A stretch of DNA of 6,379 nt from a virus (Duplodnaviria; Heunggongvirae; Uroviricota; Caudoviricetes), in the IMG/VR virus record IMGVR_UViG_2541047166_000019. One strand, 5' to 3'. Below, one piece after another: positions 1,597 to 2,608 of the stretch; the stretch's first letter is position 1; each line of letters opens with the position of its first letter. Position numbers and translations under genes: made by a program. The notes beneath the pieces were generated by a model. The model had not been told where the DNA came from and made no database searches. It was given only the letters and a program-made list of their open reading frames with translations.

Positions 1597-2608
1597 AAAG
1601 GTGAAAACCGGCAGTTCATCCAGTAAGTCAGTATTGACCTGGCTTGCTGATATGTGCGGTGCCGATTTGTGTGCATACCCGTCTGTATCTGCACTGGCAG
1701 AAGTAACGGAACTGAACAAAAAGACTGTGCAGGACAGCTTACGACACCTGATGGAGATTGGGTTAATTGTTGATACCGGTGAGAGAAAAGGCAGAACAAA
1801 GCAAATTGTGGTGTACCGACTTATCGGTGTAGAAGAAAGTGTTGCCGAGCCTGAATACACCCAAAAACGGGAGTCTTTAAAGGTGGGTAAAATTGGTGCT
1901 GTTAATAAAAACAGTACCGAAAATGGTTATGTTTCAGCACAAAACAGACCCAAAAACAGAACTCTTAGCTGCATGGAAAATAACCAAAGACACCCAAATT
2001 TTCCATCAAAGACACCCAAAAACGGATCACGGAACCCAAAGGAACCCAAAGATCTAAACCCCACACATAACGCACGCGAGAGTGCTCCGACCAGTGAGCA
2101 GGAAGTTTTGTCGTTACAGGCAGCCCCCCCTGTATTCCTGTATGGCCTGAGCGAACCCATCGGAAAATTCCCGATGAGCGATAGCTGGTATCCGTCACGG
2201 GATTTTCGACGACGGGCTGCGTTGTGGGGGATGGCTTTGCCGGAGACAGAATTTACACCTGCTGAACTTGCCGCCTTCCGGGACTACTGGGCAGCGGAGG
2301 GGAAAGTGTTTACGCAGATTCAGTGGGAGCAGAAATTCGCCCGTCACGTAAATCACGTCAGGGCGCAGGTTAAACCAGTCAGCAAAGGGGTAAACCATGC
2401 AGCAGCACCAGGTGGCACCGCATCACGGGCAGTTCAGGAAATTCGGGCAGCACGTGAGCAGTGGGAACGTGAAAACGGATTTATCAGCGACGGAAACGGC
2501 CTGGAAGCTGTGGGAACTCATGGGGGTGGTTTATTCGAACCGCTGGATCCAGAAGAACGGGGCCGCACCTTCGAAGCTCTGGATTGCACAGATTGGCGCG
2601 ATGACTGA
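1568..2608 (+). CDS. Phage replication initiator: N-terminal winged-helix origin-binding domain plus C-terminal DnaT-like domain, 346 aa from ATG 1568
   Basis: The ORF track frame opens at 1493, but the first ATG with an RBS (GGGGGG, 5 nt upstream) is 1568. The N-terminus (SVLTWLADMCGADLCAYPSVSALAEVTELNKKTVQDSLRHLMEIGLIVD) is a replication-protein-type wHTH. The C-terminal segment FPMSDSWYPSRDFRRRAALWGMALPETEFTPAELAAFRDYWAAEGKVFTQIQWEQKFARHV aligns by eye with the C-terminal domain of E. coli DnaT. The 3' end (2397..2608) overlaps the next ORF, so the true stop is uncertain. Confidence 0.8.
   Translation: MSIDALRWAKKVKTGSSSSKSVLTWLADMCGADLCAYPSVSALAEVTELNKKTVQDSLRHLMEIGLIVDTGERKGRTKQIVVYRLIGVEESVAEPEYTQKRESLKVGKIGAVNKNSTENGYVSAQNRPKNRTLSCMENNQRHPNFPSKTPKNGSRNPKEPKDLNPTHNARESAPTSEQEVLSLQAAPPVFLYGLSEPIGKFPMSDSWYPSRDFRRRAALWGMALPETEFTPAELAAFRDYWAAEGKVFTQIQWEQKFARHVNHVRAQVKPVSKGVNHAAAPGGTASRAVQEIRAAREQWERENGFISDGNGLEAVGTHGGGLFEPLDPEERGRTFEALDCTDWRDD
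1857..2050 (+). repeat. Iteron-like direct repeats (core ACCCAAA, six copies), candidate phage origin inside the initiator gene
   Basis: Identical 14-mers ACACCCAAAAACGG at 1857..1870 and 2012..2025. Related copies at 1946..1959 and 1989..1999, and a tandem GGAACCCAAA pair at 2031..2050. An AT-rich stretch (about 1875..1945) lies among them. They encode the low-complexity linker (..NRPKNR..KTPKNG..RNPKEPKD..) between the two initiator domains, as lambda ori does within gene O. Confidence 0.5.

Follow-up and report, generated by a model that had tools for sequence, protein, structure and literature searches.

A conserved family of dyad iterons marks a probable lambda-like replication origin inside the initiator gene of an Escherichia coli prophage

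The 6,379-bp stretch of DNA analysed here (the window; IMG/VR virus record IMGVR_UViG_2541047166_000019) corresponds to a lambdoid prophage of E. coli O157:H7 and other Shiga-toxin-producing strains, which match it at >99% identity; the database counterpart of the region is deposited as 'Enterobacteria phage PPompW'. We propose, at a probability of roughly three in four, that positions 1854-2050 are the replication origin of this prophage, a lambda-like origin lying within, and bound by the product of, its own initiator gene (1568..2608, + strand; 346 residues in the list of open reading frames (ORFs); 'DnaT-like ssDNA-binding domain-containing protein' in RefSeq, where ssDNA is single-stranded DNA). 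An initial annotation had noticed repeats in this gene and read them as a candidate phage origin. That reading, which is drawn by analogy, is supported by distant relatives of the initiator, by constraint acting at the DNA level and by co-inheritance of the repeats with the winged helix-turn-helix (wHTH) domain of the protein; we infer origin activity itself because of the analogy with lambda O and its ori.

A search with the first 165 residues of the initiator found relatives at identities down to about 30%, and we analysed 14 distant homologues of the wHTH (28-66% identity), fetching their DNA gene by gene. These include Vibrio phage H20, Acinetobacter phage LZ35, Edwardsiella phage GF-2, an EBPR podovirus, contigs from Klebsiella, Edwardsiella and Yersinia, a run-assembly contig with a protein that NCBI names from Ralstonia, and six metagenome or sequencing-run contigs (individual loci carry L numbers below). 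Alleles from E. coli at 97-99% identity differed too little to inform the comparison, except for one with a 10-bp deletion. The sequence AAAACGG, in a conserved context, recurs in the linker-coding segment of all 14 relatives; related initiator genes lacking the repeats, on which the initial annotation had staked its reading, did not turn up, as 14/14 carry the repeat family in the same linker. The repeat unit is an imperfect dyad of about 24 bp, AACAGTCCC-AAAAAC-GGGACTGTT, and 50 unique sites from the 14 loci give the consensus GAAACAGTCCCAAAAACGGGACTGTTAA, in which AA at -10/-9, CC at -3/-2 and A at +8 are nearly invariant even though they lie outside the seed. Complementarity holds in every site at positions -2/+5 and -3/+6, and it exceeds expectation at the outer arm pairs.

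A 20-bp position weight matrix (PWM), trained on the 50 unique sites of the 14 other loci with the window excluded, finds four window sites of at least 16 bits, all on the + strand within 1854-2028 and at codons 96-155, against 0.016 expected (0.009 with the local A-rich composition). These four are the sole cluster in an 18.7-kb stretch of the prophage, the one further site (15.2 bits) being isolated and far outside. Each of the 14 relatives has, in the same linker, three to seven + strand sites that score 13 bits or more, and outside the linkers these loci hold just two isolated minus-strand matches (13.3 and 14.8 bits). That the same site of about 20 bp is found with distant initiators from many bacterial groups suggests that this is an ordinary kind of origin in the family.

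All four window sites are on the + strand. Iteron 1 (1854..1877; AATACACCC-AAAAAC-GGGAGTCTT) scores 24.7 bits, has arms complementary at 7/9 positions and is translated TQKRE; its position, at residue 96, is conserved in L010, L011, L012 and L019. Iteron 2 (1910..1933; AACAGTACC-GAAAAT-GGTTATGTT; 16.6 bits, arms 7/9, translated STENGYV) differs by one base from the family site AACAGTACCGAAAACGG; this full site, with its ACCGAAAATGG core, had been overlooked at first reading. Iteron 3 (1943..1966; AACAGACCC-AAAAAC-AGAACTCTT) scores 23.3 bits, and in an alignment of alleles its core is AAACGG in three E. coli alleles. Iteron 4, the last (2009..2032; AAGACACCC-AAAAAC-GGATCACGG; 23.2 bits, translated TPKNGSRN), is homologous to the last iteron of every family member. 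A variant site at 1987..2006 (+ strand; AAGACACCCAAATTTTCCAT, translated HPNFP) has the iteron left arm and an A/T centre with CC replacing GG, and scores below 2 bits with the PWM. The same type of variant recurs between the penultimate and last iterons in L007, L016 and L017 (..CCRAAATTYCCC), and it is also seen as CCGTTTTTYCC in five loci (L010, L013, L016, L017 and L019).

The repeats were originally described as six copies of ACCCAAA, and these are real: they start at 1859, 1948, 1992, 2014, 2034 and 2044, all on the + strand, with none elsewhere in the 6,379 bp, whereas shuffled sequences hold 1.12 on average and four at most (0/200 shuffles reach six). They are not, however, a single class of repeat, the unit being the dyad of about 24 bp with its four full sites: the copies at 1859, 1948 and 2014 are the left arm and A-tract of full iterons, that at 1992 lies in the variant site, and those at 2034 and 2044 belong to a second class of repeats. 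The two identical 14-mers (CAAAGACACCCAAA, 1985-1998 and 2007-2020) and the perfect tandem pair of 10-mers (GGAACCCAAA, 2031-2040 and 2041-2050) are present as described, and so are the spacings of 44, 22, 20 and 10 bp, but the first spacing is 89 bp and not 90. An AT-rich stretch exists only in a modest sense (GC 0.35-0.38 at 1850-1999 against 0.49 in the window); the top strand of the array is strongly A-rich and T-poor. The placement of the repeats between the wHTH and the DnaT-like domain holds, since they occupy codons 96-161 of the initiator ORF, between its HTH_36 and PF17948 matches. As a separate observation, positions 1700-2200 contain only two GATC (Dam) sites, at 2025 inside the last iteron and at 2051 right after the second 10-mer, which thereby flank the tandem pair.

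The full sites of the window are spaced by 56, 33 and 66 bp, less regularly than lambda iterons with their 20-24 bp. Irregular spacing is the rule in this initiator family, yet it is not arbitrary: the periodicity of AA dinucleotides in the window array is greatest at 11.0 bp (P = 0.013 against Markov resamples), and 9/15 loci have a peak at 10.75-11.75 bp. This is consistent with phased A-tracts, which are known for lambda ori and would thus be common to both arrays. Literature searches with the iteron sequences returned only primers and papillomavirus E2 sites, and no phage paper; the iteron cores of L016, L017 and L018 (e.g. GTACCGAAAACGGTAC) are identical to the papillomavirus E2 consensus ACCG-N4-CGGT, presumably by coincidence, and this accounts for the papillomavirus sites returned.

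How the repeats are translated sets DNA sites apart from an oddity of the protein. The six ACCCAAA copies lie in ORF frames 0, 2, 1, 2, 1 and 2, and the identical 14-mers are read as QRHPN and SKTPK, so it is the DNA that repeats and not the protein. Across the family, the three reading frames hold 35, 13 and 4 sites, so that one DNA motif yields PKNG from CCC AAA AAC GGn (PENG where the purine R is G), TQKR from ACC CAA AAA CGG and PKTG from CCA AAA ACG GGn, and the linkers of the relatives are rich in the recurring peptides PKNG, PENG, TQKR/SQKR, PKTG and TVPFFP. To avoid circularity, we picked peptides by amino-acid sequence alone and then examined their codons. Linker QKR is encoded CAA-AAA-CGG in 14/14 cases, while CGG serves for arginine elsewhere in 44/235 (P = 4e-10); the K or E of [KE]NG is NAA in 38/38 (P = 3e-9); and the asparagine before glycine is AAC in 38/40 (P = 5e-7). 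Overall, the fixed synonymous codons give P values from 1e-5 to 1e-10. The exchange of K for E, which is radical for a protein, corresponds to the single tolerated purine position of the site. These codon patterns indicate that the repeats are constrained as DNA and not as protein.

The contrary idea, that the repeats have no nucleic-acid function and are a by-product of a low-complexity, disordered linker rich in P, K and N, thus retains next to no credibility. The linker is indeed predicted to be disordered (see below), and 5/6 ACCCAAA copies encode P-K or P-N; but identical 14-mers stand in different frames, the DNA motif is kept between initiators only 28-35% identical, and we reject the idea because synonymous codons are fixed (QKR in 14/14, [KE]NG in 38/38, AAC in 38/40) and because the K/E interchange corresponds to one purine position of the DNA site.

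A role in RNA or translation, with the dyads acting as hairpins in the initiator mRNA or the A-runs driving a frameshift to a truncated DNA-binding protein, is also very improbable. In its favour, the sense strand has all the sites, each dyad could fold into a short stem closed by an A-rich loop, and some database products, P0013 for example, are shifted in the A-runs. On the other hand, the core is conserved as specific bases (invariant CC...GG, R at -1) without covariation, position -1/+4 is non-complementary in 36/52 sites, the presence of sites in all three frames leaves no single slippery-site geometry, and the shifted products may be sequencing errors in homopolymers. The outer positions of the dyad arms do partly co-vary, but since this is equally expected from phage-specific half-site preferences it does not discriminate for a hairpin.

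The family extends far beyond the 14 loci. The wHTH domain alone finds 2274 cluster representatives (of clusters at 50% identity) at E<=1e-3, and 476 at E<=1e-10. Among 115 full-length top wHTH matches, chosen without regard to the linker, two or more strict signature peptides are present in 61, and the density of these peptides at residues 80-200 is about 78 times that found elsewhere in the 115 representatives; many of the remaining representatives have variant peptides such as PKTE, FQKRK and SQIRN.

Directly to the right of the iterons is the second class of repeats (class II; 2031..2050, + strand), the two copies of GGAACCCAAA, which carry RGAAY elements (R, purine; Y, pyrimidine) 10 bp, or one helical turn, apart and stand in the place of the AT-rich unwinding tract of lambda. 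RGAAY(C) is present in two to four copies per locus, spaced 9-13 bp apart (two outliers, 19 and 21 bp) and read in different frames; in 15/15 loci the offset from the start of the last iteron to the first copy is exactly 22 bp, and the total is 36 copies against 3.3 expected (P = 3e-25). One idea, which we consider possible but rather unlikely, is that RGAAY(C) is a sequence-specific element for unwinding or filament nucleation, recognised by an initiator already bound to the dyads, and a phage counterpart of DnaA-trios or of the repeats of plasmid unwinding elements that are bound, on one strand, by Rep; linked to it is the thought that family phages could cross-fire or block one another's origins, because the core CCCRAAAACGG is nearly unchanged between initiators about 30% identical, from Vibrio to Ralstonia.

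Alleles in this region vary in length. In strain 2013C_3963 (L002, 1971-1980) one copy of GGAACCCAAA is lost and the initiator gene is split into two annotated pieces; database product P0006 (37 member sequences) reads as if there were three copies; and other products (P0002, P0007 and P0013 among those flagged) shift frame in the iteron A-runs or in the C-run after 2050. Some of these frame-shifted products may reflect homopolymer sequencing errors, and the initiator gene is liable to frameshifts owing to the A-runs and tandem repeats of its origin.

In a nearest-neighbour scan of duplex stability, the least stable 40-mer near the array is at 1877..1916 (70% AT; z = 1.7), between iterons 1 and 2, and this is a candidate for the first melting site of the locus. 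In 6/14 relatives the weakest local 40-mer starts between 2 bp before and 9 bp after the end of the array.

Several observations weigh against placing an origin here. To the right of its last iteron the window lacks an AT-rich tract like that of lambda (counted after 2028, the first 30 bp are 57% AT and the next 30 bp 37% AT), and only two of the window sites have the perfect CCCAAAAACGG core. DnaA boxes do not exceed chance (17 DnaA-box-like matches against 12.6 expected, none well placed). Homology of the wHTH to lambda O could not be demonstrated (hhalign probability 3%; no match to PF04492/Phage_rep_O), and the searchable literature yielded no binding or origin-activity experiment for this initiator family. 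Finally, the repressor encoded in the window has no S24 peptidase domain, and because of this the prophage is probably not SOS-inducible; several Sakai prophages have been reported not to be SOS-inducible (PMC2669165).

The first of these points would also suit an alternative in which the sites bind the initiator solely for autoregulation or copy-number control (titration, handcuffing, or a roadblock into the loader gene) and the firing origin lies elsewhere in the prophage. Besides initiation, iterons of plasmids and of lambda-type replicons serve in control, and PMC7466680 describes additional iterons whose roles are distinct. We nevertheless regard this as improbable, given that no second site cluster occurs in 18.7 kb of prophage or in the flanks of the 14 related loci, and that the array, the class II repeats and the weak duplex after the last iteron (6/14 loci) together follow the layout of lambda ori.

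It is likewise improbable that the array is a decaying relic, with genuine iterons but with an origin that no longer fires in a cryptic prophage whose sites have drifted and whose loader is shortened. Half of the four full sites have departed from the perfect core (AAATGG in iteron 2, AACAG in iteron 3), the lambda-P-like loader encoded downstream lacks about 90 N-terminal residues, frameshifted alleles such as L002 and P0006 are common in databases, and the neighbouring DUF1627 and fimbrial genes are damaged. However, the initiator and P-like ORFs are intact in the window, 908 E. coli genomes carry the module at an identity of 97.6% or more, the 153-residue P-like protein also stands beside the initiator in the deposited phage genome Rac-SA53, and variant cores (AAATTG, AAATGG) are normal in the relatives.

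An origin bound by its own initiator fits the domain structure of that protein, which comprises an N-terminal winged HTH, a disordered linker and a domain like the C-terminal part of DnaT. The wHTH (residues 1-95; coding region 1568..1852, + strand) was assigned from an AlphaFold model and Foldseek: the model (mean predicted local distance difference test score, pLDDT, 84) has four helices and a beta-hairpin wing, its Foldseek matches are wHTH regulators and its fold is a generic wHTH; Pfam gives a weak HTH_36 match at residues 36-67. Residues 91-102 have pLDDT below 50, and disorder is predicted for the linker from residue 91 on. Within the wHTH, conservation is highest at K52-T53-V54, where the helix 51-63 starts, and at the wing residues D69-T70-G71-E72-R73-x-G75-x-T77, a stretch that also contains K74 (D69-TGERKG-x-T77); such conservation of recognition helix and wing fits the conserved DNA core. 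The DnaT C-terminal-like (three-helix, ssDNA-binding) domain (residues 194-270; coding region 2147..2377, + strand) matches PDB entries 6AEP, 4OU6, 4OU7 and 9ZBT (E 1e-18 to 1e-19) and Pfam PF17948 (DnaT; residues 201-267, E 9e-17). The architecture of full-length DnaT is not shared, as only the C-terminal domain aligns (9ZBT residues 82-157) and the N-terminus of the initiator is a wHTH of another family. E. coli DnaT (primosomal protein I), whose C-terminal ssDNA-binding domain is the one matched here, acts in PriA-dependent restart and has neither a sequence-specific DNA-binding domain nor iterons, whereas in the initiator this domain is fused to a wHTH that is the putative origin-binding part.

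The P-like helicase loader (153 residues; 2601..3062, + strand; PF06992, E 1e-16; 'replication protein P' in RefSeq) begins within the end of the initiator gene, its start overlapping the stop codon there. Residues 94-202 of lambda P align with it, as do residues 94-252 of a 252-residue relative, so that the N-terminal third, about 90 residues, of a full-length P is missing. In lambda, the N-terminal part of P probably contacts O.

The wHTH and the repeats travel together. BLASTP against the YdaU protein of Rac-SA53 gives an alignment that begins at K161 (nucleotide 2048) and is 87% identical from there through to the C-terminus, with unrelated N-terminal halves; and within E. coli, 1568-2100 is either at least 97.6% identical or matched only from query position 481-488 (window 2048-2055). 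This places a module junction at 2048..2055, with the wHTH and repeats on its left and sequence common to Rac-type YdaU initiators on its right. Among the 14 relatives the wHTH and the iterons are constant, while the C-terminal domain and the downstream partner vary: the partner is lambda-P-like in L008, L012 and L019, a DnaB-like helicase in L007, L013, L014 and L018, DnaC/IstB-like in L017, and of other kinds in the remaining loci. As wHTH and repeats stay constant while C-domain and partner change, the two form one exchangeable specificity module, ending just past the RGAAY repeats, and because the upstream genes vary too, the wHTH of the initiator is the only constant candidate for the binder. 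As a side observation, the metagenomic locus L014 has GTGTAAC six times in 175 bp (5077-5252), about 1.8 kb downstream of the initiator and beyond the DnaB-like helicase gene; this is a separate repeat cluster.

The Rac-SA53 module, of YdaU/YdaV type, is instructive in this respect. Its C-terminal 186 residues are 87% identical to those of our initiator and the same 153-residue P-like protein follows, but the N-terminal half is unrelated and the site family is absent from its gene (no PWM match), as expected if specificity lies in an exchanged N-terminal/ori module. Literature searches on YdaU and Rac, on DnaT with iterons and on replication modules found no description of the origin of this initiator family.

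Lambda, with which we group the Shiga-toxin phages 933W and P27, is the closest known system. Its four annotated iterons (TCCCTCAAAACGAGGGA, TCCCCTAAAACGAGGGA, TCCCTCAAATTGGGGGA and TCCCTCAAAACAGGGGGA; sequences also in PMC7466680) occupy codons 117-145 of O, so that in both systems, as the initial annotation had noted, the iterons lie in the linker-coding part of the initiator gene (codons 96-161 in the window). The iterons are similar in shape, an AAAAC(G) centre standing between a CCC arm and a GGG arm; the site of the family, (T/A)CCCRAAAACGGGA, follows the same plan as the lambda iteron with shorter arms and without the extra TC/A arm bases of lambda, and the lambda variant CAAATTGGGGGA is paralleled by CCCAAAATTGGGA in L008 and L014 (AAATTG-type). 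In both, a P-type loader gene comes next and is translationally coupled, and the recombination points annotated in lambda lie to the right of the iterons, as does the module junction of the window. The differences are also plain: by direct count the 40 bp after the fourth lambda iteron are about 80% AT, where the window has two RGAAY repeats in DNA of 50-57% AT; the C-domain of the window initiator is DnaT-like, unlike that of lambda O; and the P-like protein lacks the N-terminal third of lambda P. On lambda, the family PWM makes a marginal match to iteron 2 only (7.1 bits), and for this reason we do not claim sequence equivalence with the lambda sites.

Iteron plasmids (pSC101, R6K, RK2, F and P1) offer a second comparison, since there too a winged-helix initiator acts on repeats of about 17-24 bp in roughly helical phase. 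Plasmid unwinding elements include a second set of short repeats, 13-mers, beside the iterons (PMC4081077), and the class II repeats of the window adjoin its iterons in the same manner. However, the iterons of plasmids are direct repeats between genes, usually flanked by DnaA boxes, to which Rep binds as a monomer with two winged-helix domains, whereas the window has intragenic dyads, an initiator with a single wHTH and a disordered linker, and no DnaA boxes above chance.

Considering these likenesses together, we suggest how the origin at 1854-2050 might work. Dimers of the initiator winged helix would bind the dyads, and the phased A-tracts (11-bp periodicity) could help to wrap the DNA into an O-some-like complex. 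The DNA might then melt beside or within the array, either in the spacer 1877-1916 or in the RGAAY zone; the RGAAY repeats could be part of an unwinding or oligomerisation zone, the step of this scheme with the least support. The DnaT-like C-domain may hold the ssDNA, dock the short P-like loader with host DnaB, or do both, and DnaB would be loaded. Rightward transcription from a cro-side promoter would cross the site, as in lambda. In and near the repeat array itself, no sigma-70-like promoter or terminator was found.

The surrounding genes have a lambdoid order. A cI-like repressor (350-757, minus strand), a 135-residue HTH_3 protein without a peptidase domain, is followed by a cro-like gene (834-1061) and a YdaT-like gene (1045-1596), then by the initiator and P-like genes, and after these by DUF1627, a broken fimbrial gene, the paa adhesin gene and hokD. 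The DUF1627 gene has an apparent ATG at 3096 and an in-frame TAG at 3147-3149, with the RefSeq start at 3150, and its N-terminus looks to have been cut off by a nonsense mutation. In the RefSeq annotation the fimbrial-protein pseudogene (3996-4529) carries a frameshift and an internal stop. After it, directly upstream of the paa gene, AT content reaches its maximum for the window (80-85% at 4552-4663, within 4552-4690), and the fimbrial pseudogene, the AT-rich DNA and paa look like an accessory-gene ('moron') cassette that was inserted between the replication genes and hokD.

An iteron origin inside the initiator gene is the classical, textbook arrangement of lambda and is to be expected in a lambdoid prophage, so the value of our finding is as annotation and as a lead, and it holds no new principle. 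What appears to be new, as far as the searchable literature goes, is the site family itself, with its conserved RGAAY repeats and its near-constant core across divergent initiators. The finding locates a probable origin for a prophage module of about 900 complete E. coli genomes, O157:H7, O26 and O111 included, and explains the odd repeated linker peptides (PKNG, PENG, SQKR, PKTG, TVPFFP, EPS) of these initiators as translated DNA binding sites. For the large and uncharacterised initiator family, with its 2274 representatives, the 20-bp matrix provides a testable model of the site, and the conserved second repeat class, at the position of an unwinding element, is a possible clue to how origins without an AT-rich tract are opened.

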